Source of the DNA: Escherichia coli
GTDB taxonomy: Bacteria > Pseudomonadota > Gammaproteobacteria > Enterobacterales > Enterobacteriaceae
DNA: 64,000 nucleotides
Strand: one strand, 5' to 3'
Assembly (NCBI RefSeq): GCF_001677475.2
Contig: NZ_CP015229.1
The number at the start of each line of letters is the position of its first letter. The first letter of the stretch is position 1. Shown piece after piece: positions 7,309 through 38,032 of this stretch. Under the pieces are notes generated by a model. That model was not told where the DNA came from, searched no databases, and worked only from the letters and a program-made list of their open reading frames with translations. The translations under genes were made by a program, and so were the position numbers.

Positions 7309-7896
7309 AATTTTTCCTGTCTCCAGGCCCCAAAGTAAATAATAAAAAATTCCTAAAACTTAAGGAAAAAATATGCCCAATAAATTGGCGATGAATGCTG
7401 ATTAAAATCAAGAAAAACTGCCATTAACACATTGAAGTTACTGTTTTTATACATAGATAACAAAACACATATTTAGCGGTTGGTAATTATCACATAATAA
7501 TGTGTGTAAATTGATGGCGGATTGATGCAAATTTGTTAATAGCAATGGTGTTAGCTGCGATTGCGTGCTCAAAAAATAATCTGTAATGAGCATGGGTTGA
7601 CGATATATAATATATTTTTCGTTAAGATTCTTTTTGTATGTTGTTAAAAAATAAAGTAATTTTATCCTGGTTGTATTTTGTTATCAGAACCGACTTGCTT
7701 TTTATTTAATGACTATTCCCATCACAGAAAACGAAGTATCATCTTAAATCGATGCGCGGAAATATTTAACTTGAACAAGCGGAAATAAATAGAGCAGCTA
7801 TTCAGATTATTCTTTATATTGGGGCTATTAAGGTTATGTTAATTGTAGCTTTGCTATGCTAGTAGTAGATTTTTGATAAATGTTTTATGGTCACAA

Positions 7897-8457
7897 ATGA
7901 ACGTGAGTAAGTATGTCGCTATCTTTTCCTTTGTTTTTATTCAGTTAATCAGCGTTGGTAAAGTTTTTGCTAACGCAGATGAGTGGATGACAACGTTTGG
8001 AGAAAATATTACACAAACCTGGCAACAGCCTGAACATTATGATTTATATATTCCTGCCATCACCTGGCATGCTCGTTTCGCTTACGACAAAGAAAAAACC
8101 GATCGCTATAACGAGCGACCGTGGGGTGGCGGTTTTGGTCAGTCGCGATGGGATGAAAAAGGAAACTGGCATGGCCTGTATGCCATGGCATTTAAGGACT
8201 CGTGGAACAAATGGGAACCGATTGCCGGATACGGATGGGAAAGTACCTGGCGACCGCTGGCGGATGAAAATTTTCATTTAGGACTGGGATTCACCGCTGG
8301 CGTAACGGCACGCGATAACTGGAATTACATCCCTCTCCCGGTTCTACTGCCATTGGCCTCTGTGGGTTATGGTCCAGTGACTTTTCAGATGACCTACATT
8401 CCGGGTACCTATAACAATGGCAATGTGTACTTTGCCTGGATGCGCTTTCAGTTTTGA
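7897..8457 (+). CDS. pagP: lipid A palmitoyltransferase PagP (CrcA)
   Basis: ORF 7873..8457; start placed at ATG 7897 giving 186 aa [25 protein letters not shown]... with signal peptide. Confidence 0.9.
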
Positions 8458-8631
8458 GACAAATGAAATTTTAGTAAACTCTTTAAAATCAATGGGTAAA
8501 ATAATTAACATCAAAAATAACGCGACTTTTATCACTTTTTAGTAAAGTTGCACTGGACAAAGCGTACCACAATTGGTGTACTGGTAACCGACACAGCATT
8601 TGTGTCTATTTTTCATGTAAAGGTAATTTTG

Positions 8632-8841
8632 ATGTCTAAGATTAAAGGTAACGTTAAGTGGTTTAATGAGTCCAAAGGATTCGGTTTCATTACTCCGGAA
8701 GACGGCAGCAAAGACGTGTTCGTACACTTCTCTGCAATCCAGACTAATGGTTTTAAAACTCTTGCTGAAGGTCAGCGCGTAGAGTTCGAAATCACTAACG
8801 GTGCCAAAGGCCCTTCTGCTGCAAACGTAATCGCTCTGTAA
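8632..8841 (+). CDS. cspE: cold-shock-domain protein CspE
   Basis: 69-aa ORF from ATG 8632: [33 protein letters not shown]... (RNP1/RNP2 motifs). Confidence 0.95.
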
Positions 8842-8860
8842 GATACGTCAGCAAGAATTC

Positions 8861-8890
8861 AAAACCCGCTTAATCAGCGGGTTTTTTTTG
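8861..8890. terminator. Rho-independent terminator between convergent cspE and crcB
   Basis: Hairpin cccgct/agcggg (8865..8881) followed by a T8 run; A-run on the other side. Confidence 0.7.
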
Positions 8891-8894
8891 GTCT

Positions 8895-9278
8895 TTAGTG
8901 TGCGGTTGAGGCTGAAAACAGCCAGAATGCCAGTGCGGTCATGGCAAAAGAGCCCAGAAGGTTGACGAAAACGTTCAGTAATGCCCAGCCAAAGCGACCC
9001 TCTTGTAACAAAAACACCACTTCTGCCGAAAATGTTGAGAAGGTTGTTAGACCGCCACAAAATCCGGTGGTGATTAATACTTTCCACACTGGATCAATGT
9101 TCGTCATCCTGCTGAACCAGGCGAATCCCATTCCTATGATGAATGCCCCAATCAGGTTTGCTGTCAGCGTCCCCAACGGAATCGCCTGATGCAGTGGGTT
9201 AAATCGCATACTTAACAGCCATCTCGCCACGCTTCCCGTACCACCGCCAATAAAAACTGCTAAAAGAAGTTGTAACAC
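8895..9278 (-). CDS. crcB: fluoride channel CrcB/FluC
   Basis: 127-aa membrane [26 protein letters not shown]... Confidence 0.9.
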
Positions 9279-9370
9279 TGCAAAATCCTGCTATTTGATT
9301 TGTATGAGTGATAAGTGTAACGCCGAATAATCGTCGTTGGCGAATTTTACGACTCTGACAGGAGGTGGCA

Positions 9371-10159
9371 ATGCTGGTTGCTGCAGGACAGTTTGCTGTT
9401 ACATCTGTGTGGGAAAAGAACGCTGAGATTTGTGCCTCGTTGATGGCGCAGGCGGTGGAAAACGACGTATCGCTGTTTGTCCTGCCGGAAGCATTGCTGG
9501 CGCGCGATGATCATGATGCAGATCTATCGGTTAAATCAGCACAGCTGCTGGAAGGCGAATTCCTCGGACGTTTACGGCGAGAAAGTAAACGTAACATGAT
9601 GACGACAATTCTGACGATTCATGTTCCTTCAACGCCGGGGCGCGCATGGAATATGCTGGTGGCACTTCAGGCAGGAAACATCGTCGCCCGTTATGCCAAA
9701 CTGCATCTCTATGATGCATTTGCCATTCAGGAATCACGTCATGTTGATGCTGGTAATGAAATAGCTCCGTTACTGGAGGTGGAAGGGATGAAGGTCGGTC
9801 TGATGACCTGTTATGACTTACGCTTTCCAGAGCTGGCGCTGGCACAGGCATTACAGGGAGCTGAAATCCTGGTAGTTCCTGCCGCCTGGGTTCGTGGGCC
9901 GCTCAAAGAGCATCACTGGTCAACGTTGCTTGCCGCTCGTGCGCTGGATACCACCTGTTATATGGTGGCGGCGGGGGAGTGCGGGAACAAAAATATCGGG
10001 CAAAGCCGAATTATAGATCCCTTTGGCGTCACGATTGCGGCAGCGTCAGAAATGCCTGCACTCATTATGGCGGAAGTGACGCCCGAACGTGTGCGTCAGG
10101 TGCGCGCGCAACTGCCCGTCTTAAACAACCGTCGCTTTGCGCCGCCGCAATTATTATGA
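9371..10159 (+). CDS. ybeM: carbon-nitrogen hydrolase (nitrilase superfamily) YbeM, intact
   Basis: ORF 9365..10159; ATG 9371 with AGGAGG 8 nt upstream; 262 aa; my recollection is that this gene is a pseudogene in K-12. Confidence 0.8.
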
Positions 10160-10287
10160 TGTTTTTTTACTCGGCGCTTGATTCACCTTGTTACAGATTG
10201 CTATTGTGTGCGCGCGTCGAATGACCGTTAATATTCTCTGGTTTTTAAGGCGCGTTCTGTTGCCGGTTATATGTCAAGAAGGTATCT

Positions 10288-10491
10288 ATGGGTGAGATTA
10301 GTATTACCAAACTGCTGGTAGTTGCGGCGCTGGTCGTTCTGCTGTTTGGGACTAAGAAGTTACGTACGCTGGGCGGAGACCTTGGAGCGGCCATTAAAGG
10401 GTTCAAGAAGGCGATGAATGATGACGATGCTGCGGCGAAAAAAGGCGCAGACGTTGATCTTCAGGCTGAAAAGCTCTCTCATAAAGAGTGA
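10288..10491 (+). CDS. tatE: twin-arginine translocase subunit TatE
   Basis: 67-aa [36 protein letters not shown]... Confidence 0.9.
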
Positions 10492-10531
10492 CGTGGCGAG
10501 CAGGACGCTCCCTCAATATCTTGTTCGATAC

Positions 10532-10564
10532 AAAAAAACCCGCTTCAAAAAGCGGGTTTTTTAT
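10532..10564. terminator. bidirectional Rho-independent terminator between tatE and lipA
   Basis: aaaaaaacccgcttcaaaaagcgggtttttt: perfect hairpin flanked by an A-run and a T-run. Confidence 0.75.
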
Positions 10565-10592
10565 CAGACAGATGTAAGTAATTATTACAGGA

Positions 10593-11558
10593 TTACTTAA
10601 CTTCCATCCCTTTCGCCTGCAAATCGGCGTGGTAAGACGAGCGGACAAACGGACCGCATGCAGCATGGGTAAAGCCCATCGCCAGCGCTTCGGCTTTCAT
10701 TTCGTCGAACTCATCCGGGCTAACGTAACGTTGAACCGGCAGGTGATGGCGGCTTGGCTGCAAATATTGCCCCAGCGTTAGCATCGTCACACCATGACGG
10801 CGCAGGTCGCGCATTACCTCAATAATTTCTTCATTGGTTTCACCCAGACCCACCATCAGACCAGACTTGGTCGGGATTTCCGGATGCGCTTCTTTAAAGC
10901 GTTCCAGCAGCTTCAGCGACCAGTTGTAATCTGCACCAGGCCGTACCTGACGGTAAATACGCGGTACGTTTTCCAGGTTATGGTTGAACACATCTGGTGG
11001 TGTGGCGGTCAGAATATCCAGAGCACGATCCATACGACCGCGGAAATCCGGCACCAGAGTTTCAATTTTGATTTGCGGGCTTTTTTCCCGAATGGCAGTA
11101 ATGCAATCCGCAAAGTGTTGGGCACCGCCATCGCGCAGGTCATCACGGTCAACGGAGGTGATAACCACATAACGCAGCGCCATATCGGCAATGGTCTGCG
11201 CCAGTTTCACTGGTTCATTGGCATCCGGAGCTACCGGGCGACCGTGGGCAACGTCACAGAACGGACAACGGCGGGTACAAATAGCGCCGAGGATCATAAA
11301 CGTTGCTGTGCCGTGGTTGAAGCATTCCGCCAGGTTAGGGCAGGAGGCTTCCTCGCAGACAGAATGCAGGCCATTTTTGCGCATTGCGGCTTTGATGCCC
11401 TGGATACGTGTAGAGTCCGCTGGAAGCTTGATTTTCATCCATTCCGGCTTGCGCAGCAGGGCTTCGCGCTCTGTTGCCACGTTTTTAACCGGGATAAGGG
11501 CCATCTTATCGGCATCGCGGTATTTAACACCGCGTTCCATCACAATGGGTTTACTCAT
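10593..11558 (-). CDS. lipA: lipoyl synthase
   Basis: 321-aa [28 protein letters not shown]... with radical-SAM CxxxCxxC. Confidence 0.95.
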
Positions 11559-11766
11559 AGCGTGCGTGTTCCAGTTGCGAATTACGAAGGAAAGCGTTTC
11601 AATTCAATAGATTGTTGTAATTATCAACTATTTTTGAATTAACGACTGGCAGTATATCATTGAAACGGACCTGAAAGCAGCCAAAGCGGTCGCGAAAATG
11701 TAAAATTGTTGTTGGATTGTGCCATTTTTTCGCTCTTCGCTGTGATCTGGCTGTAACAATACTTTT

Positions 11767-12720
11767 TCAAAATGCATTACGGATAACATCTATTACCCCG
11801 TGCAGGATGGGATCACGCAGGCTGAATTTGTTGTAGTGGATAGAGAAATCTATTTGCTCCTCATTTAAGGACGGAAAAGGCAGTTTTTCTAGCGGCCAAC
11901 AACGGCTAAACAGGTTATAAAAACGGCTGGGAATAATCGCTAACATGTCACTGTTGGCAACCAGTGCAGCGATTGTCAAAATGTTGTAGCTGGTGAAACT
12001 GATTTGCCGGTCCGGAAACATCTCTTGAACTCTCTGCCGCAGACCGCTGAAATTTTGCCCTTCCGGTAACAGGAGTATATGCGCAGCGTTGTCGATAGTC
12101 TCCCTGTCATCTTCTAAAGAGAGTAGTGGATTTCCCTCACGGCAAATTAACACCATATTGTCGGTGAACAGAACATGATGTTGCACCGTACGATTGGTGC
12201 AAAACATGTTATCGATGATGAGATCGGTTTGAAACTGACTGAGTTGGTTTTCCGCGTCGCTGATGGGCGGGTTGCGCAGTAAAAGCTGCGGATAGTGAGT
12301 TTTAATCGCCCGATAGATGACAGGAAGGACCAGGGCTCCGACCGAGGGGGTGGTCGCAATAGTTATCGTTCGTTGCTTATCATAGCTTCCTTCGATATCC
12401 AGCGCGCCAAGAATGGACTCAAGGCCCTGACTGATATACTCATGTAGATGCATCGCAAATGCGGTAGGAGTGACACCCTGGCCTTTGCGAATAAACAATG
12501 GGTCAGGGAATATAACGCGCAGTTTCTGAATAGACTGACTGATTGCCGAGGGTGTCAGATTAAGCACTTTCGCTGCATTAACGATCCCTTTATGTACATA
12601 TACAGCTTCAAAAATAGTCAGAAGGTTAAGATCAATATTTCGTAAGGTTGTAAATATTTGTGGTTTACCTTCTGACGACTTTCTGCTTAAACAGGTTTCA
12701 ATTTGATTATTACTATCCAC
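11767..12720 (-). CDS. ybeF: LysR-family transcriptional regulator YbeF
   Basis: 317-aa ORF with N-terminal HTH (LNLLTIFEAVYVHKGIVNAAKVLNLTPSAISQSIQKLR). Confidence 0.85.
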   Translation of the reverse strand: MDSNNQIETCLSRKSSEGKPQIFTTLRNIDLNLLTIFEAVYVHKGIVNAAKVLNLTPSAISQSIQKLRVIFPDPLFIRKGQGVTPTAFAMHLHEYISQGLESILGALDIEGSYDKQRTITIATTPSVGALVLPVIYRAIKTHYPQLLLRNPPISDAENQLSQFQTDLIIDNMFCTNRTVQHHVLFTDNMVLICREGNPLLSLEDDRETIDNAAHILLLPEGQNFSGLRQRVQEMFPDRQISFTSYNILTIAALVANSDMLAIIPSRFYNLFSRCWPLEKLPFPSLNEEQIDFSIHYNKFSLRDPILHGVIDVIRNAF

Positions 12721-12979
12721 GCACTTACTCCAATTTTATTCATGGAAAAATAATATTTAAAAAAATTACAATAATCTTATGTCTAATTGGAACGGAACGC
12801 TTTTGCTCACCATAATCAACTATTTCAATAAGTTAATCAATGGGGTGAGTTACGGAGCAAGGCGTAGCATCGCATTTCTGCAAGTGATAAAGAAAATATA
12901 CAAACGCGAAGGAGATGTAAAGCATTAGCGGGTATTATGAGTAATGACCCAGTGTAAATTGGGCCATTGAGGTATGCAA

Positions 12980-13621
12980 TTAAGCGGTAATATATTCGAA
13001 GTCAGGATTGTTTAGTAGCGCTAAAATATTTTCCAGTAAACGTGGTGCAATATTATTAGTCGTCGCTTCGGGTTTCCATTGTGATATTTTAGCCATTTCC
13101 ATTCCGGCATACCCACAAGGATTAATACGTAAAAATGGTGAAAGATCCATATTGACGTTTAATGCCAGACCGTGGAATGAACAACCGCGTCGAATACGTA
13201 AACCCAGTGAGCAAATTTTCTTTTCCCCGACATAGACACCAGGCGCGTCAGCCCGAGGATGCGCTTCTATACCCAGTTCAGCCAGGGTATTCACCACTGT
13301 TTGCTCAAGCAAGGTCACCAGTTCACGCACACCGAGTTTACGGCGTTTCAGGTTAAGCAACACATACATCACCTGTTGCCCCGGCCCGTGATAAGTCACC
13401 TGCCCACCGCGATCGCTCTGAATCACCGGAATATCACCCGGCATTAAAATGTGCTCCGCTTTTCCTGCCTGCCCTTGAGTGAATACCGGATAGTGCTCGA
13501 CCAGCCAGATTTCATCAAGGGTACTTTCATCGCGGGTATCGGTGAATTCATGCATAGCCTGGGAGATTGGCTCGTAAGGCTGAAGACCGAGCTGGCGGAC
13601 AAGAATTTTATCCTGATACAA
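12980..13621 (-). CDS. lipB: octanoyltransferase LipB; apparent TTG start
   Basis: 213-aa ORF (M)[22 protein letters not shown]...; the first codon, reverse-complement of 13619..13621, is TTG. Confidence 0.9.
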
Positions 13622-23541: not shown

Positions 23542-26124
23542 TTAGCCAACGACCAGATTGAGGAGTTTACCCGGTACGTAAATCACTTTACGCACGGTAA
23601 CGCCATCAAGATATTTTGCTACCAGATGTTCCTGGCCAGCACGTTCGCGAACCTGTTCTTCCGTTGCATCTACCGGAACGGTGATTTTGGCACGGACTTT
23701 ACCGTTAACCTGCACCACCACCAGCGTGGAATCTTCCACCATCGCTTTCTCGTCTGCAACCGGCCACGGCGCGTTGTCGATATCGCCTTCGCCTTTCAGT
23801 TCCTGCCACAGCGTGAAGCAGATGTGCGGCGTGAACGGGTTAAGCATACGAACAACGGCCAGCAGGGCTTCCTGCATCAGCGCGCGATCCTGCTCACCAT
23901 CGGTCGGTGCTTTTGCCAGTTTGTTCATCAGCTCCATAATCGCCGCAATTGCAGTGTTAAAGGTCTGACGACGACCGATATCATCGGTCACTTTAGCGAT
24001 AGTTTTATGAACATCACGACGCAGAGCTTTCTGATCTTCAGTCAGTGCGTCAACGTTCAGCGCCGCAACATCACCTTTCGCAGTGTGCTCGTAAACCAGT
24101 TTCCAGACACGTTTCAGGAAGCGGTTAGCCCCTTCAACGCCGGACTCCTGCCATTCGAGAGTCATATCCGCCGGAGAAGCGAACATCATAAACAGACGAA
24201 CGGTGTCCGCGCCGTAACGTTCAACCATCACCTGCGGGTCGATACCGTTGTTCTTCGACTTAGACATTTTGCTCATGCCGGTATACACCAGTTCATGGCC
24301 TGCCGCGTCTTTCGCTTTCACGATACGGCCTTTCTCGTCGCGCTCAACGATAGCATCAACCGGGGAAACCCAGTTACGTTCGCCGTTTTCGCCTACATAG
24401 TAGAAGGCATCTGCCAGCACCATCCCCTGACACAGCAGCTGTTTCGCTGGCTCGTCAGAGTTCACCATGCCTGCATCACGCATCAGTTTGTGGAAGAAGC
24501 GGAAGTAGAGCAGGTGCATGATGGCGTGTTCGATACCACCAATGTAGATATCCACTGGCAGCCAGTAGTTAGCTGCTTTGGAATCCAGCATACCCTCTTT
24601 GTACTCCGGGCAAGTGTAGCGCGCATAGTACCAGGAGGACTCCATAAAGGTGTCGAAAGTATCGGTTTCACGCAGTGCCGGCATACCATTAACGGTGGTT
24701 TTCGCCCACTCAGGATCTGCTTTGATCGGGCTGGTAATACCATCCATTACCACATCTTCCGGCAGGATCACCGGCAACTGGTCGTCCGGAGTAGGCATCA
24801 CAGTGCCGTCCTCCAGCGTCACCATCGGAATCGGTGCGCCCCAGTAACGCTGACGGGAAACACCCCAGTCGCGCAGGCGATAGTTTACTTTACGCTCGCC
24901 AACGCCCATTGCCGTCAATTTGTCGGCAATGGCGTTAAAGGCCGCTTCATGGTCAAGACCGTTGAACTCGCCAGAGTTGAACAGCACGCCTTTTTCAGTC
25001 AGGGCTTGCTGAGAAAGATCTGGCTCAGAGCCGTCAGCTGCCAGGATAACCGGTTTGATATTCAGGCCGTATTTAGAGGCAAACTCGTAGTCGCGCTGGT
25101 CGTGACCCGGAACCGCCATAACTGCGCCCGTGCCGTATTCCATCAATACGAAGTTTGCTGCCCAAACGGGAATTTCTTCGCCCGTTAATGGGTGAACCGC
25201 TTTAAAGCCAGTATCGACGCCTTTTTTCTCCATCGTCGCCATTTCAGCTTCGGCAACTTTGGTGTTACGGCATTCGTCAATAAAGGCCGCCAGTTCAGGA
25301 TTATTTTCCGCCGCTTTCTGCGCCAGCGGATGACCCGCAGCTACCGCCAGGTAGGTACAACCCATAAAGGTGTCCGGGCGGGTAGTGTAAACGGTCAGCG
25401 TGTTGTCATAGTCGTTAACGTTGAAGGTGATCTCCACGCCTTCGGAACGACCGATCCAGTTACGCTGCATGGTTTTAACGGTGTCTGGCCAGTGATCCAG
25501 TTTATCCAGATCGTTGAGCAGCTCGTCAGCGTAAGCGGTGATTTTGATAAACCACTGCGGGATCTCTTTACGCTCAACTTTGGTATCGCAGCGCCAGCAG
25601 CAGCCGTCGATAACTTGTTCGTTCGCCAGTACGGTCTGGTCGTTCGGGCACCAGTTGACCGCAGAAGTCTTCTTATATACCAGGCCTTTTTTATACAGCT
25701 CGGTGAAGAATTTCTGTTCCCAACGGTAGTATTCCGGCGTACAGGTTGCCAGCTCGCGGCTCCAGTCATAACCAAAGCCCAGCATTTTGAGCTGGTTTTT
25801 CATATACGCGATGTTGTCGTACGTCCACGGTGCCGGAGCGGTGTTGTTTTTCACCGCCGCGCCTTCCGCAGGCAGACCAAACGCGTCCCAGCCGATCGGC
25901 TGCAGAACGTTTTTGCCCAGCATGCGCTGGTAACGGGCGATCACGTCACCGATGGTGTAGTTACGTACGTGGCCCATGTGTAGTCGACCAGAAGGATAGG
26001 GAAGCATAGACAGGCAGTAATACTTCTCTTTGCTCTCGTCTTCGGTTACTTCAAATGTGCGCTTCTCATCCCAATGAAGCTGTACTTTGGATTCTATCTC
26101 TTCCGGGCGGTATTGCTCTTGCAT
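23542..26124 (-). CDS. leuS: leucine--tRNA ligase
   Basis: ORF 23542..26148; start at internal Met gives 860 aa [24 protein letters not shown]... with HMGH and KMSKS motifs. Confidence 0.95.
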
Positions 26125-26359
26125 GGCAGCCAGTGGTCCTGTTTTCATTACGGCTACAAAAGTAGCGTTAGAGGTGGTTTTTCAGATCCGCATAGCATAG
26201 CCCAAACGTCCGCGTCAAAACAGCCTTTCGCGCACTCGACGTTGAAATGATGCCCGGATTATTCATACATTAATTTACAGAGTTTGTGGGCGTATTAGCA
26301 AAGCAAGGAACAAAGAACGTCTATTATTATAGTCAGTTAACGACCCGGGAGATGAAACG

Positions 26360-26842
26360 ATGAACAAGGTTGCTCAATATTACCGTGAACTGGTCGCGTC
26401 ACTGAGCGAACGCCTGCGTAATGGCGAACGTGATATCGACGCACTGGTGGAACAGGCGCGCGAGCGCGTAATAAAAACAGGGGAGTTAACGCGAACCGAG
26501 GTCGATGAGCTGACGCGAGCTGTCAGACGTGACCTGGAAGAGTTCGCCATGAGCTATGAAGAGAGCCTGAAAGAAGAATCTGACAGCGTCTTTATGCGGG
26601 TGATTAAAGAAAGCTTATGGCAGGAGCTGGCAGACATCACCGATAAAACGCAGCTTGAATGGCGCGAAGTTTTCCAGGACCTCAATCATCACGGGGTTTA
26701 TCACAGCGGAGAAGTGGTAGGGCTGGGAAATCTGGTCTGCGAGAAATGTCACTTCCATCTCCCAATCTACACACCGGAAGTGCTGACGCTATGCCCGAAA
26801 TGTGGTCATGATCAGTTCCAGAGACGCCCGTTCGAGCCGTAA
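26360..26842 (+). CDS. ybeL: DUF1451 zinc-ribbon protein YbeL
   Basis: 160-aa ORF MNKVAQYYRELVASLSERLRNGERD...; C-terminal CEKC...CPKC pairs. Confidence 0.85.
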   Translation: MNKVAQYYRELVASLSERLRNGERDIDALVEQARERVIKTGELTRTEVDELTRAVRRDLEEFAMSYEESLKEESDSVFMRVIKESLWQELADITDKTQLEWREVFQDLNHHGVYHSGEVVGLGNLVCEKCHFHLPIYTPEVLTLCPKCGHDQFQRRPFEP

Positions 26843-26875
26843 TAGTCTGATTTCGCACAGCAATAAAGAGAATAT

Positions 26876-26908
26876 GGGCCGAATGAAATTCCCCGGCCCT
26901 TGTTTTTA
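26876..26908 (+). terminator. Rho-independent terminator after ybeL
   Basis: gggccgaatgaaattccccggccc hairpin followed by ttgttttta. Confidence 0.6.
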
Positions 26909-26911
26909 TCT

Positions 26912-27895
26912 CTACAGTAAATCTTCAATCTCACGAATTTCTTGACTGACATCTCTGGTTCCGGATGACTGAACTTTACGATACAGGTCGAGAGCCTGTC
27001 GGAGATCGACAGGTCTTCCTTCTCCGTAGTGATACATAATGGCCAGGTTATACCAGGCAGTGGCGTCATTGCATTCAGCGGCTTTCGTAAACCATTCAAA
27101 GGCGGCCTGATAATCTTTCTCAACGCCTTGTCCGTGTTTATACATATAACCGATGTTGACGTAAGCGCCGACGCTCCCCTGAGCGGCAGCCTTCAGATAC
27201 CAGTACATCGCTTGCTTATAGTCCTGGTCCACCCCTTCGCCAGCGTTATAATCCCATGCAATTTGAAACTGAGCATGCCGATTACCCTGCTGTGCGCTTT
27301 TCAAATACCAGAATGCGGCGAGTGTCTCGTTTTGAGCGACGCCTTTTCCGTCTTCATAAAGATCGGCCAGATTGTTTTGCGCGTCACTATGGCCTTGTAA
27401 TGCAGCTTGTTTGTACCAGAAAAATGCCAGCGTATAGTCTTGTGCGACTCCGTTGCCATTTCTGTACATCCACCCAAGATTATTTTGCGCATAAGACATT
27501 CCGCTCTCCGCGGCTATCTGATACCAGGCAACCGCTTCTTTATAGTTGGGGTCTTCTCCACGATCCAGTATCCAGCCAAGGGCGTTGGAAGCGAAAGTAT
27601 GGCCTTGTAGGGCAGCTTTTTTCAGCCAAAAGATGGCTTGCTCATTATCTTTATGACGGCTTTTATCCTCGGAGTATTTCCGCCCTAAGGAATATTGTGC
27701 TTCACAATGGCTTTGCTCAGCGGCCAGCTTCAGCCAGTAAAAGGCCTTTTCGTCGTCCGGAGAGTCAATTGCGCTATCGCGATTATAATAAAACCCAATA
27801 ATATATTGAGCCTCGCAATCGCCTTTTTCAGCACGTTCGATAATCTCATCTATTGATAAATTATCGCAGCAACTTGACGTAAAAATCATTATCAT
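26912..27895 (-). CDS. ybeQ: Sel1-repeat (TPR-like) protein YbeQ
   Basis: 327-aa ORF with repeated A-x-A-Q-x-x-L-G-x-x-Y-x-x-G-x-G-V units; paralogue of ybeT; start could be 6 nt further in. Confidence 0.85.
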   Translation of the reverse strand: MIMIFTSSCCDNLSIDEIIERAEKGDCEAQYIIGFYYNRDSAIDSPDDEKAFYWLKLAAEQSHCEAQYSLGRKYSEDKSRHKDNEQAIFWLKKAALQGHTFASNALGWILDRGEDPNYKEAVAWYQIAAESGMSYAQNNLGWMYRNGNGVAQDYTLAFFWYKQAALQGHSDAQNNLADLYEDGKGVAQNETLAAFWYLKSAQQGNRHAQFQIAWDYNAGEGVDQDYKQAMYWYLKAAAQGSVGAYVNIGYMYKHGQGVEKDYQAAFEWFTKAAECNDATAWYNLAIMYHYGEGRPVDLRQALDLYRKVQSSGTRDVSQEIREIEDLL

Positions 27896-28052
27896 TTCCT
27901 TATGGTTGTAGATAAAACATATTATATTTTTATGTGTTCCATTTTTGCGTAAACCTTATTTTATGCGTATTATGTTGCGTCAGAAAAGTATAAATAAATG
28001 AGCCTCGCAACGTGGTTAATATTCATTGAATGAATATTTAAGGATAAATTAT

Positions 28053-28759
28053 ATGGACATGGAGTCGCAAAAAATATTGTTTGCACTTTCCACTCCGATG
28101 GAAATACGCAATAAATGCTGTTTACCTTCGCATTCATCCCCCAAAATGTATTTAGGTACATGCTTTTTGACCTTTCTTCCTCATGGGGAATTGATGGCCG
28201 TGATGACCTGCTGCGCACAATTCACCGAATGATCGATAACGGTCATGCCGCGCGGTTGGCAGGGCTTTATCACCGCTGGTTTCGTTATTCTCCGTGTGAA
28301 TGGCGTGACTATCTTGCTGAACTAAATGAGCAAGGTCAGGCTTATGCGCAATTTGTCGCCAGCACCGCCGAATGCTGTGGCGAAGGGGGAATCAAAGCCT
28401 GGGATTATGTCCGGATGGGTTTTTTAAGCCGAATGGGCGTACTTAATAACTGGTTGAGCGAAGAAGAAAGTCTATGGATCCAGTCGCGCATTCATCTACG
28501 GGCGCTACGTTATTATAGTAACTGGCAGCAATACTTTGCCGGTTATACCTTTGGTCGGCAATATTGGCAGTCTCCCGAAGATGATAATCTTCAGTTATTA
28601 CGTGAATTCTTAGCGCGTAAAGAATACGACGATTCCGGCAATGATATGTTTTATCAATTATTTGCCAGTGATGATGCGTATTACCCTACCTTGTCCTGGC
28701 AACCATTGGCTTACTATTCTGCATGCCCGGAAACGCTTAAGGATATGAGCGACCTATGA
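28053..28759 (+). pseudogene. ybeR: DUF1266 protein YbeR, disrupted by a -1 frameshift in a T5 tract (28164..28168)
   Basis: Track ORFs 28026..28232 (frame 3) and 28115..28759 (frame 2) together align colinearly with intact paralogue YbeU; a T6 tract would restore one ~235-aa frame. Could be a sequencing error. Confidence 0.7.
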
Positions 28760-30183
28760 AAAATTGCTGGCAGATCCTCGATATATCTCAAACGACTGAC
28801 GTCGATATTATCCGCCGCGCTTATCTGGCGCTGTTACCGTCCTTTCATCCAGAAACCGATCCGCAGGGTTTTAAACAACTTCGTCAGGCGTATGAGGATG
28901 CGCTACGGATTGCGCAGTCGCCTGCTAAATCTGTTTGGCAACCAGAAGAATATGAGGTAGCAGAACATGAAATTCTGCTCGCCTTTCGCGCGTTACTTGC
29001 CTCTGATAGCGAACGTTTTCTGCCCTCCGCCTGGCAGCGATTCATTCAGCAATTAAATTATTGCTCGATGGAAGAGATTGATGAATTACGCTGGTCGCTG
29101 TGCACAATCGCCATGAACACTGCCCATTTATCCTTCGAGTGCGTGGTGTTATTAGCAGAAAGATTGCGGTGGTTGCAGGAGGAAAACGTCGGGGAAATAG
29201 ACGAAGAAGAACTGGAATCCTTTTTATATGCCATTGCGAAGGGGAATGTTTTTAACTTCCAGACCATTCTGCATCTGCACGTTGCCGTGCAAAATGACAC
29301 TATCGATTTTTACCAAATGTTCGCTCGGATTTGGTTATCGCATCCAGAATGGCTGACATTGTATTTAGCGCAACATCGCGCAGTGATTATCCCCGATGAT
29401 GCAAAACTGCACAGAAATTTACTCCGCTGGTATAGCGCAGGTCGCCTGGGAATCCCCGAACTCCTGGATTACGCCCGGTCGTGGCGGGAAGCTGAACCTG
29501 ATAATGAAGATGCGCGTTATTATGAATACGCACAACGCGTCTATTGTGGAGAAGGCGAAAGCTTGCTGGCAGAACTTTGTGACTACTGGCGCGAGTATCC
29601 CTCCACCCAGGCGGATGCTTTAATGTTGCAATGGTGCCGTCAGCATCGGGTCGATTATTACCCGTTAGTGGTGATGATGATTGAAGCTCGTGAACTGGTT
29701 AACGATCAGGGAAAACCGCTACTTTATATCCCCGGCGACAGCGCCCGTACGCGTTTTCATTTATACGAAATACTCAGCGATGAAAAACTCTCTGCTCTGG
29801 GGCGTTCACTGGTCGAGATGGTTTTGCACAAAGGACGTAAGCCGCGAATCTCACTCACGCGTGATACAGAACATCCCTTATGGCCATTATATTTAGTTGC
29901 TAAACAATTAGTTCAGGCCAGCCAACCGACAGAAGAATCATTAATGCCGATTGTGAGCCGCCTTGATGCAGAAGCTCGTTGTCCACTGGAAGCATTAATG
30001 ATTCGTCGATTATTAATTCAGGCGGCAAATTTTACCGAGAAGCAAACCGTCGAACCGGAGCCGCAACCGCAGCCAATGCCCGTTGACGATGGTGGGCCGG
30101 GCTGTCTGGGCGTCATCAAAATTATTTTCTACATTTTTATCTTTGCCGGTTTGATAGGGAAAATACTCCATCTGTTCGGGTGA
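28756..30183 (+). CDS. djlB: J-domain co-chaperone DjlB (YbeS) with C-terminal transmembrane anchor
   Basis: 475-aa ORF; N-terminal J-like domain with HPE in place of HPD (28846..28854); hydrophobic C-tail [20 protein letters not shown]; ATGA overlap with ybeR. Confidence 0.85.
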
Positions 30184-30192
30184 CAGTCGACG

Positions 30193-30747
30193 TTAATGTG
30201 CGGGAAGCCCGGCAAGTAATCTTTCCGCATTTTTGTAATGTTGTTTGGCGGCCAGTTTTAACCATTTTTGAGATTCATAATGGTTAACATTAATACCTGA
30301 GCCATTTCTGTAGATCAAACCCAAAGTATATTGAGCATGAGCATACCCTTGTTCAGCTGCTTCCTTATACCAGAGAATTGCTTTACGGGTATCGGGTTTG
30401 ACCCCCAGACCTTTGAGGTAGATCCACCCCAGTTTACTTTGCGCGCGTGGATTTTCCTGTTCCGCTGATTGCTCATACCAGTATCTCGCCTGTGTATAAT
30501 CCAGTGGTTTACCGTCGCTACCATGAAGATAAAATTCTCCAAGTCGATATTGCGACGTTGAGTGACCATGAATCGCGGAAAGCTCTGTGGCTGCCGTGGT
30601 GAATGGAAGACTGCCCGGTGAGCTTAAATAATCAAAGGCATAATTCGCCATGGCTTTATCACGCAACGTCGTTTTCTTGGGTTGGCTAATACAGGTTATT
30701 GCTGCAACTATAAATATTGCGAATATATACATTAATTTTTTATTCAT
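30193..30747 (-). CDS. ybeT: Sel1-repeat protein YbeT with N-terminal signal/anchor
   Basis: 184-aa [28 protein letters not shown]... followed by Sel1-like repeats. Confidence 0.85.
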
Positions 30748-30848
30748 GTGTGAATACTTCGATTTTCTTTTTATTTTGAAAGCGTCAAGTTTATACTCAT
30801 CAATAATAAAAAAGTAGTCAGTTAATGCACTTAAGGGATTATTAACAA

Positions 30849-31556
30849 ATGAACAAGGAAGAACAATATCTTCTTTTTGCGCTTTCTGCGCCCATGGAAA
30901 TACTTAATCAGGGTTGCAAACCCGCGCATGACTCGCCAAAAATGTATACCGGGATAAAAGAATTCGATCTCTCATCATCCTGGGGAATAAATAATCGTGA
31001 TGATTTAATTCACACTATTTATCAGATGACCGATGATGGTCATGCTAATGATTTAGCTGGCTTATATCTGACATGGCATCGCTCTTCCCCTGAAGAGTGG
31101 AAAGCATTAATTGCTGGCGGCTCGGAGAGAGGGTTGATTTATACCCAATTCGTTGCCCAAACCGCTATGTGTTGTGGGGAAGGGGGAATCAAAGCCTGGG
31201 ATTATGTGCGGATGGGTTTTTTATCACGGGTTGGTGTGCTCAACAAGTGGCTGACGGAAGACGAGAGTTTATGGCTGCAATCGCGCGTCTATATACGAGC
31301 ACACCATTACTATCACAGCTGGATGCACTATTTTTCCGCCTATTCGTTAGGGCGTCTCTACTGGCAATCTTCTCAGTGCGAAGACAACGCTTCGCTACGC
31401 GAGGCGCTAACCCTGTACAAATACGATAGCGCCGGGAGTCGGATGTTCGAAGAGCTGGCAGCGGGAAGCGATCGTTTCTATGCCACGCTTCCCTGGCAGC
31501 CATTAACTGTCCAGCCTGAATGCCCGGTAACGCTTAAGGATGTGAGCGGCCTATGA
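30849..31556 (+). CDS. ybeU: DUF1266 protein YbeU
   Basis: 235-aa [36 protein letters not shown]...; paralogue of ybeR. Confidence 0.85.
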
Positions 31557-33004
31557 AAACATGTTGGCAAATCCTCGAAATTGAAAGCACGACGCAAATA
31601 GACATTATCCGCCAGGCTTATCTTGCTCGCTTACCGTTGTGTCATCCCGAAACCGATCCGCAGGGGTTTAAAGCATTACGCCAGGCCTATGAAGAGGCGC
31701 TGCGACTGGCGGTAAATCCTGTCGAGGAAGCAGATAATGAAGAAAAAGATGCCACCGCTGAACATGAAATACTACGAGCATTCAGGACATTACTGGATTC
31801 AGAAAGTGATCGTTTTCAGCCCTCCGCCTGGCAGAAATTTATTCAGCAATTAAATACCTGGAACATGGAGGATGTCGATCAATTACGCTGGCCGCTGTGT
31901 GCAATCGCTATAGAAGCGCGATATCTTTCATTAAATTGTGCTTCTTTGCTGGCAGAGCGTTTGAACTGGCATTCGTTTAATGACAGCGAAGGAATGGATG
32001 AGGAAGAAAGGGAGGCTTTTCTTGAGGCCATTCAGGCTGGTGATTGTTTCGATTTCCTTAGCCTTCTGGAATATCCCGTCGCGTTGCAGAACCAGACTGT
32101 TGAGTATTACTTCGCGCTGGAACGCTGCTGCCGTTACCATCCCGACTATGTCACTGCGTTTATGGCAATGGAAGGTCCGTGGTTCATTCCTGATGATGTC
32201 AAGTTACATCGCAAACTGTTGCGCTGGTACAGCTCGGTGAAAACAGGTATGGCGGAACTCATTCCTGTTGCCCAACAGTGGCAAGCAGAAGAACCAGAAA
32301 GCGAAGATGCCCGTTATTACCAGTGTGCGCAACGGTTGTACTGTGGCGAGGGGGAAAGCCTGCTTGCCGATCTCTGCGCATACCGGGAGAGTTACCCATC
32401 TACACAAGCCGATAATTTGTTGTTGCAGTGGAGCAAGCGTCATTGCCCGGATTATTTCGCGCTGTTAGTGATGGTTATCGAAGCGCAGAGCATGGTTGAT
32501 GCGCAAGGTCAACCGTTGAAATATGTTCCTGGTGAGAGCGCCCGGACGCGGCTGTTATGGGCGGAAATTTTACATAGCGGAAAATTATCGCCGTTAGGTC
32601 AATCGTTTATTGAGTCGTTATTCTTCAAGCGCAAAGCATGGGCGTGGTGGAAATCGAGAGTCGGTAGCGAGACAGAACAAGATTCACCGTTACTGGATTT
32701 GTATCGGGTAGCGGAACAGGTTGTGCTGGAAGCGTTCCCGAAACAAGAGATGCTGGCCCGTCTTAATACAAGGCTGGAAGGTGGAGATGCTCATCCATTA
32801 GAGGCCATTATCACCCGGATGCTGTTGACGAAAGTGAAACTCGAGCCGGAGGATGAAGATGTCGATGAGACAACACCTGAAAACCACGAAGAAATAAATG
32901 ATGAGGATGAAAAACCACAGAGCATTACCAGCATTATCAAAATCAGCTTAACGGTGCTGGTGATAGGTTATGCTCTCGGAAAAATCGCGATGTTGTTTAG
33001 CTGA
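31553..33004 (+). CDS. djlC: J-domain co-chaperone DjlC (YbeV) with C-terminal transmembrane anchor
   Basis: 483-aa ORF paralogous to DjlB; HPE at 31643..31651; acidic region then hydrophobic tail [18 protein letters not shown]; ATGA overlap with ybeU. Confidence 0.85.
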
Positions 33005-33019
33005 GGAAGTGTTTTTTGC

Positions 33020-33043
33020 GCCGATGCCGGATGCAGCGTTTAT
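33020..33043. repeat. left half of a REP-like palindromic unit split by the IS insertion
   Basis: gccgatgccggatgcagcgtttat; its inverted partner gccgcatccggcagccg lies at 34480..34496 on the far side of the IS. Confidence 0.6.
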
Positions 33044-33566
33044 TGAACTGCACCCCAAATGTTGGACATAATCTGACATCTGAAGGTGCAGTTTATGAAA
33101 CATTCATTTGAAGTAAAACTTGCCGCTGTAAATCATTACCTGGCTGGTCATGCAGGCATCATTTCTACGGCAAAACTCTTTCAACTTTCTCACACCAGCC
33201 TCTCACACTGGATTAATCTTTTTCTTCTTCACGGTCCTCGGGCACTGGATTGCAGACACAAGCGTAGCTATTCTCCTGAAGATAAACTTTGCGTGGTTCT
33301 TTATGCTCTCGGGCATTCTGAGTCTCTACCCCGGGTAGCTGCCCGGTTTAACATTCCCAGCCACAACACGGTTAAAAACTGGATAAAAGGCTACCGCAAA
33401 TCTGGTAATGAGGCCTTTATCAGGCGCAGGAAGGAGAAAAGCATGACCCGTTCTGATGATACCCATGAAAACGAGGCAAACATGACGCCGGAAGAGATGA
33501 AGAATGAGCTGCGTTATCTTCGCGCAGAAAATGCATATCTGAAAGCCATGCAGGAGCATCTCCTGG

Positions 33567-34477
<911 letters not shown>

Positions 34478-34499
34478 ATGCCGCATCCGGCAGCCGTGT

Positions 34500-36170
34500 T
34501 TAAGGGATCTCAATAGCCAAATAATCGCTCGCCCGTCGCCGAACTTCATCGACGCGGGCCATATCGTTTGACTGCAACGCCGCATCAAAATCGGTGATCA
34601 CCCGGCCGATCTCTTCTCGCTCGTCACCCAGCGCCCGCGCCCACAACTCTTCCAGTTTTGCTTTAAAGGTACGGTTGATGAGCATATCGCGCGGATAAAT
34701 TTTCAATGCGGATAACCGCGTCCGACTCTCTTCAATCTGCTGTGCGCTCAATGTTACAGGACTGTGATTAATGACTCTGGACTTAACGCTGCCGTCTTCC
34801 AGAAGCACGTCAACTTCAAGCAACCCGTTGATATCATAACTAAAGCGAATATCAATCGACTGATAAGCCCCGGTTTTCTTCAACGGCACATCGAAGGATT
34901 CCACCAGAATGTTATTTTTAACTTTGTGGTTTTCTCCCTGATAGACGTTAACCGTAATTGAATCCTGTTCCGGGTGCATGGTCGAGTAAGTTTCTACACG
35001 CGACACCGGTACAGTGGTGTTTCGTTCAATAATCGGCGAGAAAATGCCGGAAACGCCCTGGCGGTTAACTTCAACACCCAACGAGTAAGGGCAAATATCA
35101 GTGAGGATCACCTCTTCAATATCTTCACTGCGTAAGCGGCAGGCGGCCTGGATTGCTGCGCCCAGCGCGACAATGGTGCTCGGGTCGTAACTTTGATATG
35201 GTAATTTGCCAAACAGACGTACGGCGATTCGCTGCACCAGCGGCATTTGTGATGCGCCGCCAACCAGCACCAGACTGTCGATTTGACTTGGCTTCAGACG
35301 TGCATCGCGCAACGCCTGTTCAATCGGTACTCGCAAGCGATTGAGCAGCGGCAACCACAAATCTTCCAGTTCGTTTTCGTAAAATTCGCACTTACGCGTT
35401 TCTTCCTGATACTGCCAGCTAATTTGCAGCGGTAATTGATTGCCGCATTTTGCCGCTTCCACGCTGGTGTACAGGGCTGCCAGCTCACTTTCGTTGAGCA
35501 TGTTTTTAGCCACTGCGGCGCGTTTTAAAACTTCATCCACCAGCATATGAGTAAAATCTTCGCCGCCAAGAAAGTTGTCGCCAGCGGAGGCGTGAACTTC
35601 AATCACCGGCGTGGCGTATTCGAGCACCGTGACGTCAAACGTGCCGCCACCGAGATCAAAAACCAGCGAGCGGGTATTTTGTTGCGTATGCAGGCCATAT
35701 GCCATCGCAGCTGCTGTGGGTTCATTAATTAAGCGTACCGCATTTAACCCGGCTAACTCCGCTGCTAAACGGGTATGCTTGCGTTGTTCATCGCTGAAAT
35801 AAGCCGGAACGGAGATCACCACATCTTTAATCGGACGTTGCAGAAATTCTTCGGCATCTTCTTTTAATGAGCGTAATACCAAAGAGGACAGTTCTGGCGC
35901 GTTAAATGTATCGCTGCCTAACCGCCAGTTGGTATTACTGCCCATTGCACGTTTAAATAACGCTGCCGTTTTATCCGGATGCGAAGTGCGCCGTGATACA
36001 GCCGGTTTTCCGACTAAAATATGATTATTTTCATCCATGCTAATTATGGATGGTGTTAAATATTCACCGAACTTATTTGGAATTAATTGCGCGGCACCGT
36101 CTTTCCAGACGGCAATTAAACTATTGGTAGTACCGAGATCGATACCAATGGCGAGTTCTGCATTATCCAT
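34500..36170 (-). CDS. hscC: specialised Hsp70-family chaperone HscC
   Basis: 556-aa ORF MDNAELAIGIDLGTTNSLIAVWKDG... with Hsp70 ATPase signatures (DLGGGTFD). Confidence 0.9.
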   Translation of the reverse strand: MDNAELAIGIDLGTTNSLIAVWKDGAAQLIPNKFGEYLTPSIISMDENNHILVGKPAVSRRTSHPDKTAALFKRAMGSNTNWRLGSDTFNAPELSSLVLRSLKEDAEEFLQRPIKDVVISVPAYFSDEQRKHTRLAAELAGLNAVRLINEPTAAAMAYGLHTQQNTRSLVFDLGGGTFDVTVLEYATPVIEVHASAGDNFLGGEDFTHMLVDEVLKRAAVAKNMLNESELAALYTSVEAAKCGNQLPLQISWQYQEETRKCEFYENELEDLWLPLLNRLRVPIEQALRDARLKPSQIDSLVLVGGASQMPLVQRIAVRLFGKLPYQSYDPSTIVALGAAIQAACRLRSEDIEEVILTDICPYSLGVEVNRQGVSGIFSPIIERNTTVPVSRVETYSTMHPEQDSITVNVYQGENHKVKNNILVESFDVPLKKTGAYQSIDIRFSYDINGLLEVDVLLEDGSVKSRVINHSPVTLSAQQIEESRTRLSALKIYPRDMLINRTFKAKLEELWARALGDEREEIGRVITDFDAALQSNDMARVDEVRRRASDYLAIEIP

Positions 36171-36253
36171 TGCATTTATATCTTGAAAGAAAAAGAGATA
36201 AACAGATTAAGACCACCCGGGTAACGCGTGGTGATCTTAATCAATGACGTGTG

Positions 36254-37189
36254 TTAAGCGTAAAATTTCAGACGATCAGCCAGTAAATCAACAAAGCCCT
36301 GACGATCAACATCGACCATTACAGTGGCATTCGGTTTATTGCCGGTCAGATAATAATAATCAACAACCGTCATACCCTGGGTATATTTCCCTTGTGTTTC
36401 CACGCCAACCCAGCGCTCAACAGTGGTAAACAACTCGGGTTTTAACAGCCAGGCGATGGTGCATGGGTCATGTAGCGGTGGGCCGACAAAGCCCCATTTT
36501 TCGTCTTTGTGATATTCGAGGAAGAAATCCAGCAGTTCGGCAACAATGGTTGAAACAGGGTTGCCAATGGCGCGGAAACGCTCGGTGTCCTCAACGTGAA
36601 TTTGTGCTTTGTGAGTAACATCCAGACCGGCCATCACCACCGGGATCCCTGACTGGAAGACAATTTCTGCCGCTTCCGGGTCAACGTAAATATTAAATTC
36701 AGCCGCAGGCGTCCAGTTACCAAGCCCCATTGCGCCGCCCATAATCACGATACGGGCAATTTTGCTATGCAGTTCCGGATGGCTATTGAGCAGCAAGGCA
36801 ACGTTAGTTTGCGGTCCGGTAGACACAATCGTGACAGGTTCCGCACTTTCACGTAGCGTTTTCGCCATCAGCTCCACCGCCGTACACTTTTGCGGTGCAA
36901 ACGTCGGTTCCGGTAATGCCGGGCCGTCGAGACCGCTTTCGCCGTGCACATTGTCCGCGATAATCAACTCACGCATTAACGGTTTTACTGCGCCGCCGGC
37001 TACCGGAATATCGGTGCGATTAAGCAATGTCAGCATACGCAGAACATTGCGTAAGGTTTTTTCTGGAGTCTGGTTTCCGGCGGAAGACGTAATTGCTTTG
37101 ACATCAAGCTCTGGTGAGGCGAGGGCGAGAACTATTGCGATAGCGTCATCATGACCTGGGTCGCAATCTAACAGAATTGGCAGTGCCAT
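36254..37189 (-). CDS. rihA: pyrimidine-specific ribonucleoside hydrolase RihA
   Basis: ORF 36254..37222; start at internal Met gives 311 aa [25 protein letters not shown]... (DxDxxxDD motif). Confidence 0.9.
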
Positions 37190-37306
37190 TGTTGCTCCTT
37201 GTTGTGTGCTTCTTTGCGACAAGGGTACCGCCAGGATGTAACAGATACGAGGAGCGAAACGATAAAGCGTGAGATGGCGCGCACTTGGGTATGCGCGCCA
37301 GAGTGA

Positions 37307-38032
37307 TTAATGCAGGATTTTCGCGAGGAAGTCTTTTGCGCGGTCCGATTTCGGATCATCGAAGAAAGCGTCTTTCGGCGAGTCTTCGACAATTTTACCC
37401 TCGTCCATAAAGATCACCCGATTCGCCACTTTACGGGCAAAGCCCATTTCGTGGGTCACCACCATCATGGTCATTCCTTCATTCGCCAGTTCGACCATTA
37501 CGTCCAGCACTTCGTTGATCATCTCCGGATCCAGCGCCGATGTCGGTTCGTCGAACAGCATCGCGATAGGATCCATGCACAATGCGCGAGCGATCGCCAC
37601 ACGCTGCTGCTGACCGCCGGAAAGCTGCGCCGGAAACTTATTGGCATGTGCGGAAAGCCCGACGCGCTCCAGCAATTTCAATGCTTTTTCACGAGCGGGT
37701 GCTTTATCGCGTTTAAGCACTTTCACCTGCGCCAGGGTCAGGTTTTCAATAATCGACAAATGGGGGAACAACTCGAAATGCTGGAACACCATTCCCACAC
37801 GGGAACGCAGCTTCGCCAGATCGGTTTTCTTATCGTTCACCACGATGCCATCGACGGTGATTTCACCTTGCTGCACCGGTTCGAGGCCGTTAACGGTTTT
37901 AATCAGCGTTGATTTACCGGAGCCAGATGGGCCGCAAACCACCACCACTTCGCCTTTTTTCACTTCCGTTGAGCAGTCGGTCAGCACCTGAAAGTGACCA
38001 TACCATTTTGAAACATTTTTCAGGGTAATCAT
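37307..38032 (-). CDS. gltL: glutamate/aspartate ABC transporter ATP-binding protein
   Basis: 241-aa ORF with Walker [10 protein letters not shown] and LSGGQQQR signature. Confidence 0.95.

Follow-up and report, generated by a model that had tools for sequence, protein, structure and literature searches.

The stretch of DNA analysed here, referred to as the window, comprises 64,000 nucleotides of the Escherichia coli contig NZ_CP015229.1; over 35 kb, its identity to E. coli GF131 is about 97.7%. It carries the gene order leuS, ybeL, ybeQ(−), ybeR(+), djlB(+), ybeT(−), ybeU(+), djlC(+), IS1397, hscC(−), rihA, gltLKJI, and our subject is the block of six genes from ybeQ to djlC (positions 26912-33004), which had been picked out as AT-rich in a sequence-only reading of the window. 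The gene labels and spacer coordinates given in that reading are right, but its limits leave out hscC, which belongs to the same variable unit. The K-12 locus ybeQ-ybeR-djlB-ybeT-ybeU-djlC-hscC, which harbours the HscC/DjlB/DjlC system (Kluck et al., 2002, reviewed in PMC8215388), contains the same genes in the same order, orientation and position, with about 97% nucleotide identity, and J-domains of the HPE type (His-Pro-Glu) are common to K-12 and the window. Compared with K-12, the window additionally contains the insertion sequence IS1397 in the repetitive extragenic palindromic (REP) element between djlC and hscC, as well as a 1-bp frameshift in ybeR. The features are compiled in Table 1.

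Within the block, a DUF1266 gene paired with a J-protein gene occurs twice, as ybeR-djlB and as ybeU-djlC. Each pair is divergent from a Sel1-repeat gene (ybeQ and ybeT, respectively), while hscC is convergent at the right end. YbeR and YbeU are 60% identical, DjlB and DjlC 48%, and the DNA of the two pairs about 68%; the likeness of YbeQ to YbeT is confined to the level of the repeats. In both pairs the stop codon of the DUF1266 gene overlaps the start codon of the J-protein gene (ATGA), which implies translational coupling.

Table 1. Features of the ybeQ-hscC region and their positions in the window
Feature	Position	Strand	Remarks
Whole variable segment, ybeQ to hscC including IS1397	26844..36253		UTI89 comparison; E. 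coli genomes carry or lack it as a whole
ybeQ, 8 Sel1 repeats	26912..27895	−	Pfam Sel1 E = 4.6e-66; GC 0.467, GC3 0.470, CAI 0.270; named ybeQ in matching genomes
Divergent ybeQ<>ybeR promoter spacer	27896..28052		GC 0.268
ybeR, DUF1266, frameshifted in the window	28053..28759	+	intact reference copy: Pfam DUF1266 2e-46
djlB, probably tail-anchored J-domain protein with HPE motif	28756..30183	+	weak Pfam DnaJ match, residues 4-47; tail anchor from the literature
ybeT, short Sel1-repeat protein with hydrophobic N-terminus	30193..30747	−	Pfam Sel1, 3 repeats; GC 0.427, GC3 0.373
Divergent ybeT<>ybeU promoter spacer	30748..30848		GC 0.267
ybeU, DUF1266, ybeR paralogue	30849..31556	+	Pfam DUF1266 E = 8.4e-45
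djlC, tail-anchored J-domain co-chaperone of HscC	31553..33004	+	annotated co-chaperone DjlC; weak Pfam DnaJ match; experiments on its role reviewed in PMC8215388
IS1397 (IS3 family), 1,432 bp	33044..34475	+	imperfect terminal inverted repeats; TTAT on each side
hscC, specialised Hsp70 partner of DjlB/DjlC	34500..36170	−	Pfam HSP70 E = 2.9e-116, annotated HscC; GC 0.491, GC3 0.508, CAI 0.287

The AT shift of the block is real yet modest, amounting to about 4-5 points of guanine-plus-cytosine content (GC). The block has a GC of 0.463, compared with 0.500 in the left and 0.517 in the right 20-kb flank, and 0.504 in the whole window. Using the 45 other genes of the window, rather than the whole genome, as compositional background, the mean gene GC was 0.467 for the six block genes versus 0.519 (standard deviation, sd, 0.026; Mann-Whitney p = 2e-5), and the mean GC at third codon positions (GC3) was 0.460 versus 0.568 (sd 0.049; Mann-Whitney p = 7e-6). 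The mean codon adaptation index (CAI), calculated with Sharp-Li weights, was 0.235 versus 0.377 (p = 5e-6). The six genes span 0.427–0.482 in GC, 0.373–0.492 in GC3 and 0.208–0.270 in CAI, with ybeT as the most AT-rich of them, and the five lowest CAI values of the window all belong to the block; ybeQ alone overlaps the bottom of the range of the other genes. Codons ending in A or T account for 54% of the codons in the block, compared with 43% in the rest of the window. Thus the compositional part of the sequence-only reading, namely that the block is AT-rich relative to flanking genes and prefers A/T-ending codons, withstood the sliding GC and CAI check, as the values were not indistinguishable from those of the neighbours. 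The two divergent spacers, singled out in the same reading as especially AT-rich, indeed rank lowest in GC when the 33 intergenic spacers of 60 bp or longer are compared, followed by the dcuC/pagP spacer with 0.301.

The deviation is not spread evenly over the block. A maximal-segment analysis placed the AT-rich stretch at 26840-31112 (GC 0.448), with the djlC half hardly distinct, and about 4-5% of windows of equal length are as AT-rich as the block or more so. The composition of hscC is intermediate between block and surroundings. Besides, the most AT-rich 6-kb stretch of the window lies beyond the block, at 7091-13224 (pagP-cspE-crcB-tatE-lipA-ybeF-lipB; GC 0.450).

Presence and absence of the block were surveyed in 5,426 complete E. 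coli genomes, in which module 1 is intact in 3,713, module 2 in 4,256 and both are intact in 3,654. Allele proportions come from loci that were picked at even spacing with leuS and rihA as anchors, and the window segment was compared with loci L027, L028, L030, L031 and L032. About 68% of the sampled loci carry the full block, about 10% have module 1 deleted with a ybeQ remnant left, and about 17% show a clean absence with rihA right after ybeL, as in UTI89 and HS. Further alleles comprise IS1-mediated deletions and, in the BL21 lineage, a hybrid with an internal stop in ybeQ and a frameshifted djlB/C fusion. Altogether, about 30% of E. coli genomes are without part or all of the block. The homology to UTI89 stops at 26843, the ybeL stop codon, and resumes at 36254, the rihA stop codon, with a 43-bp REP-like palindrome between them. 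These limits, together with the joint loss of hscC, define the variable unit as ybeQ to hscC, which is larger than the block first noted. The segment is bordered by the ybeL stop codon and by a REP before rihA, and neither an integrase nor a tRNA nor flanking direct repeats are annotated or seen at these borders.

Beyond E. coli, occurrences were collected by a scan of genome contigs supplemented by contig look-ups, so that statements on distribution apply to the matches listed. The block is found at the same ybeL...rihA/gltL site in E. albertii, E. whittamii and Escherichia sp. E1V33. Salmonella and Citrobacter amalonaticus carry the duplicated pair at this site, without ybeT between the modules, and Klebsiella spallanzanii carries a single pair there, whereas the site is empty in C. 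koseri, Kluyvera ascorbata, Enterobacter ludwigii, Kosakonia and Scandinavium. The triad of DUF1266, Djl and HscC genes was also found, among the matches listed, in Budviciaceae and many Pseudomonas, and its neighbourhoods are conserved within Pseudomonas species groups and within Budviciaceae. Identity of HscC to the window copy falls with species distance, from 83% in Salmonella through 79.5% in Citrobacter and 75% in Klebsiella to 62–64% in Budviciaceae and 55–58% in Pseudomonas. A search for a donor of ybeT returned nothing but Escherichia homologues and generic Sel1 proteins, full-length homologues being confined to Escherichia. The gene seems to have been added later, within the Escherichia lineage. 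ybeT has also been listed as a variable gene and as an OmrA target (Skippington and Ragan, 2012).

The composition of the module follows its host. In Escherichia its GC is 0.46, in Budviciaceae about 0.50, and in Salmonella, Citrobacter and Klebsiella 0.51–0.52; in Pseudomonas it reaches 0.61–0.65, values that are coarse, as gene calling by ATG-initiated open reading frames (ORFs) is unreliable in these high-GC loci. We polarised third-position changes by parsimony with E. albertii as outgroup, and compared the resulting equilibrium with the present GC3. With a procedure that is biased or approximate at these divergences and drew on few genes, the block stands at 0.46 against an equilibrium of about 0.40, and the flanks at 0.62 against 0.46–0.49. 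The equilibrium of the block thus lies below its current GC3, which speaks against amelioration toward host GC, and the block is much closer to its equilibrium than the flanks are to theirs. Protein identity to Salmonella is 46–64% for the six block proteins, 83% for HscC and 89–98% for the flanking proteins. Between Escherichia species, the ratio of nonsynonymous to synonymous substitution rates (dN/dS) is 0.06–0.16 in the block and 0.00–0.07 in the flanks, indicating that purifying selection on the block persists, and the ORFs are intact in most genomes and across genera. For ybeQ, the synonymous divergence (dS) between Escherichia species is strikingly high, with values of 1.8 for E. albertii and 0.9 for E. 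whittamii compared with 0.2-0.65 for flanking genes (loci L026 and L003), which may reflect old allelic lineages or recombination at ybeQ.

Published work on other strains links the block to the silencing protein H-NS. In the genomic SELEX (systematic evolution of ligands by exponential enrichment) study of Shimada et al. (2014; PMC3946193), the ybeQ/ybeR spacer is marked in the entry "ybeQ < HNS > ybeR-djlB"; the dcuC/pagP spacer is likewise marked as H-NS-bound. Curran et al. (2017; PMC5797941) flagged ybeT and ybeU-djlC of K-12 as H-NS-associated from chromatin immunoprecipitation studies (flags K and K,O), and reported that overexpression of SlyA raises ybeT 4.1-fold and ybeU-hscD (= djlC) 2.8-fold; in the same work, these genes overlap no island called by GIST or IslandViewer in K-12. 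In E. coli 042, deletion of hns raised EC042_RS03510 308-fold at 25 °C and 4-fold at 37 °C, and deletion of hns2 raised it 8.2-fold and 5.0-fold (PMC7582179). A check of the locus tag identified EC042_RS03510 as the ybeR of the block. The derepression of ybeR and the listings of Shimada and Curran support the possible H-NS silencing raised in the sequence-only reading, whereas our own computation did not contribute to it. Matches to the high-affinity H-NS motif TCGATAAATT with at most 2 mismatches fall inside the block in about 16 of 89 cases, a mild enrichment given that the block is 9.5% of the window, and a small cluster of motif-like matches occurs at 27800-28050; however, the number in the block is approximately that expected from AT-richness and hence provides no independent evidence for H-NS. 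A consensus scan of the block for promoters and terminators was uninformative, with fewer promoter-like sites than in shuffled sequences and, at the chosen threshold, no such site in either spacer.

Taken together, we consider it probable that the block makes up most of an old chromosomal segment, ybeQ-hscC, which is dispensable, holds the HscC Hsp70 system, is kept in an AT-rich state, is silenced by H-NS and has repeatedly been lost. The segment would have been resident since before the split of Escherichia, Salmonella and Citrobacter and would then have been lost again and again, while ybeT would have joined it later, in the Escherichia lineage. The AT shift would represent a maintained state rather than the signature of a donor. 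We propose that weak expression and weak constraint let AT-biased mutation run, so that in these barely expressed genes synonymous sites would come near their mutational equilibrium; the resulting AT-rich state would in turn favour binding of H-NS, for which the divergent spacers may act as nucleation sites. In other strains, as published experiments show, H-NS keeps at least the ybeR operon nearly silent, most of all at low temperature.

Several points weigh against this account. The evidence on H-NS comes entirely from K-12 and strain 042, not from the strain of the window, and in a follow-up study the reporter fusions of ybeT and ybeU fell outside the robust SlyA responders (PMC7417354). 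Weak expression alone is insufficient to explain the shift, given that the 13 other genes of the window with a CAI below 0.30 have a GC3 of 0.551 versus 0.460 in the block (p = 0.003), so that a factor specific to the region is needed. The GC deficit relative to neighbouring genes is -4 to -6 points in Escherichia and -1 to -3 points in Salmonella, Citrobacter and Klebsiella. Taxon sampling was incomplete, the bias of the parsimony polarisation bears on the equilibrium values, and the patchy occupancy of a single site could also be compatible with repeated transfer by recombination in the flanks.

The sequence-only reading had taken the AT-richness as consistent with horizontal acquisition. 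What stands of this claim is that the block is accessory and patchy, as mapping of presence and absence showed about 17% of E. coli loci and several genera to be empty. One possibility is that E. coli took up the block recently from an AT-rich donor and that the low GC is the signature of this donor, not yet ameliorated. This would agree with GC, GC3 and CAI under the values of the neighbours, with a presence/absence polymorphism whose edges are gene-precise, and with targeting by H-NS, which is typical of xenogeneic DNA. Nevertheless, the same site and architecture in E. albertii, E. whittamii, Escherichia sp. E1V33, Salmonella, C. amalonaticus and K. spallanzanii largely refute it by synteny. 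Moreover, the GC tracks the host across genera, the equilibrium GC3 lies below the current one and amelioration is not seen, the edges carry no mobility genes, tRNA or direct repeats, IS1397 is secondary and sits within a REP, and the K-12 locus is unflagged by either island predictor. For practical purposes, a recent import into E. coli can be dismissed, and we give it next to no chance. An ancient acquisition, or repeated transfers into the same site through recombination in the conserved flanks, leaving the AT shift as a donor legacy, deserves some credence, although we hold it to be unlikely. The ybeL...gltL site is patchily occupied across Enterobacteriaceae, the triad is scattered, among the matches listed, in Budviciaceae and Pseudomonas, and ybeT, which is confined to Escherichia, is also the most AT-rich gene; besides, the distribution of HscC has been called sporadic and suggestive of horizontal gene transfer (Barriot, 2020, cited in PMC8215388). 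On the other hand, a donor signature of that age should have decayed, but it is Escherichia that shows the largest deficit, and the block is not drifting toward the GC of its host. The divergence of HscC in step with species distance, the conserved neighbourhoods of the triad within Pseudomonas species groups and Budviciaceae, and the failure of the homologue search to find a donor of ybeT argue in the same direction.

Two further explanations invoke no transfer, and both strike us as improbable. According to one of them there is nothing regional about the block, and its low GC3 and CAI are ordinary for weakly expressed E. coli genes. The raised dS of the block fits weak codon bias, which goes with fast synonymous change, and the block accounts for the five lowest CAI values of the window, while HscC, DjlB and DjlC have been reported as under the detection limit (PMC8215388). 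However, the higher GC3 of the other low-CAI genes given above contradicts this explanation, as does the observation that six out of six block genes fall under the regression line of GC3 on CAI, ybeT by 3.5 sd in GC3. According to the other, the block is a decaying remnant devoid of function, and its AT-richness stems from the neutral drift of pseudogenes. This would fit the frameshift of ybeR in the window, the internal stop of ybeQ and the frameshifted hybrid djlB/C in the BL21 lineage, and the roughly 30% of E. coli genomes that are without part or all of the block. Opposed to it are the continuing purifying selection between Escherichia species, the intact ORFs in most genomes and across genera, and the sensitivity to Cd2+ that follows deletion of hscC, or of djlB plus djlC (PMC8215388); the frameshift allele of ybeR, for its part, is absent from all 5,426 genomes and could stem from a sequencing error.

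An old, H-NS-silenced segment, as we favour, shares features with two known kinds of loci and departs from both. In common with AT-rich loci of E. coli and Salmonella that are silenced by H-NS and counter-silenced by SlyA or LeuO (for example hlyE, pagC and casABC), the block has very AT-rich promoters and is H-NS-associated; in other strains its ybeR is strongly derepressed without hns, more so at 25 °C, and its ybeT and ybeU-djlC are induced by overexpression of SlyA. Unlike those loci, the coding GC of the block is only mildly low (0.46-0.48), it is called an island by neither GIST nor IslandViewer, its ybeT and ybeU fusions are not robust reporters of SlyA, and it is resident in several genera instead of being specific to strains. 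With classical genomic islands, which are linked to tRNA genes, bear an integrase and are flanked by direct repeats, the block has in common a compositional deviation, a sharp-edged polymorphism and patchiness. In contrast to them, integrase, tRNA and direct repeats are missing, the edges are a gene stop codon and a REP, sister genera carry the block at the same site, and its composition follows that of the host. The genes, the chaperone role, the HPE J-domains, the association with H-NS and the sporadic distribution of HscC are all already published. What the present analysis offers is a conceptual correction, in that mild AT-richness together with binding of H-NS does not imply a recent foreign origin. 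In addition, the census of locus variants in 5,426 E. coli genomes and the conserved triad of DUF1266 protein, J-protein and HscC may help in finding the role of this poorly understood third Hsp70 system.

Regarding the proteins of this system, DjlB and DjlC have N-terminal J-domains that match Pfam DnaJ weakly, at residues 4-47 and under the gathering score. In these domains HPE replaces the HPD motif (His-Pro-Asp; window positions 28756-28900 and 31553-31700), and H31-P32-E33 is invariant in the alignment; the HPE of DjlB and DjlC is known from a 2026 review (PMC13254874). The translations of both proteins show hydrophobic C-terminal stretches, and of the two, DjlC alone has been shown by experiment to insert into the membrane (Peschke, 2018, cited in PMC8215388). 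Stimulation of the HscC ATPase is reported for DjlC and assumed for DjlB, while HscC, DjlB and DjlC are all under the limit of proteomic detection (PMC8215388). An HscC-subfamily gene adjoins the J-protein genes, and this adjacency is kept from Pseudomonas to E. coli. The homologue of DjlB/C in Pseudomonas and Pragia is about 880-910 residues long, about twice the enterobacterial length (L007 9995-12646; L005 8168-10894), and its C-terminus bears weak resemblance to a DUF805 membrane region. From these comparisons, membrane anchoring of the Djl proteins seems to be conserved, and the middle of the protein does not.

The AlphaFold model of YbeU is all-alpha with a pLDDT (predicted local distance difference test) of 89.5, and structure searches with this DUF1266 model returned no solved relative and no functional clue. 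Matches to the PADLOC defence models were limited to negligible ones between Sel1 proteins and PtuA, which leaves a known defence system unsupported. As a speculation to which we assign rather little probability, the DUF1266 protein might be an obligatory third part of the HscC/Djl machine, serving as adaptor, regulator or dedicated client. On this supposition, the fast divergence, the lineage-specific Sel1 partners, the H-NS silencing with derepression in the cold and the frequent loss would point to a conditional function in conflict or stress (for example against phage, toxins or envelope damage) and not to plain drift.

A few features of the window remain to be described. IS1397 sits in the loop of the REP palindrome between the convergent djlC and hscC, a REP that is uninterrupted in strain 4FA, and strain GF131 carries the identical insertion, annotated there as IS1397 transposase. 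The element is a secondary insertion, internal to the variable segment. As for ybeR, alignment with the GF131 copy revealed a 1-bp deletion from T6 to T5 in the T-run at 28164-28168, so that the frame from the ATG at 28053 ends after 58 codons and the rest lies in the frame of an ORF at 28115-28759. Given the absence of this exact allele from the complete E. coli genomes surveyed, it is either private to the strain or a homopolymer sequencing error. An Rfam scan of 26000–37500 returned zero families. In other genera and species, additional genes occur around the segment. In Salmonella, leuS and ybeL are separated by four additional genes, and a 412-residue protein without Pfam match is encoded between hscC and rihA (L023 906-5435 and 13250-14488), while C. 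amalonaticus and E. albertii each have a protein of 314-319 residues, again without Pfam match, between ybeL and ybeQ (L025 5077-6021; L026 4323-5282). The neighbourhood is thus a hotspot of lineage-specific genes.

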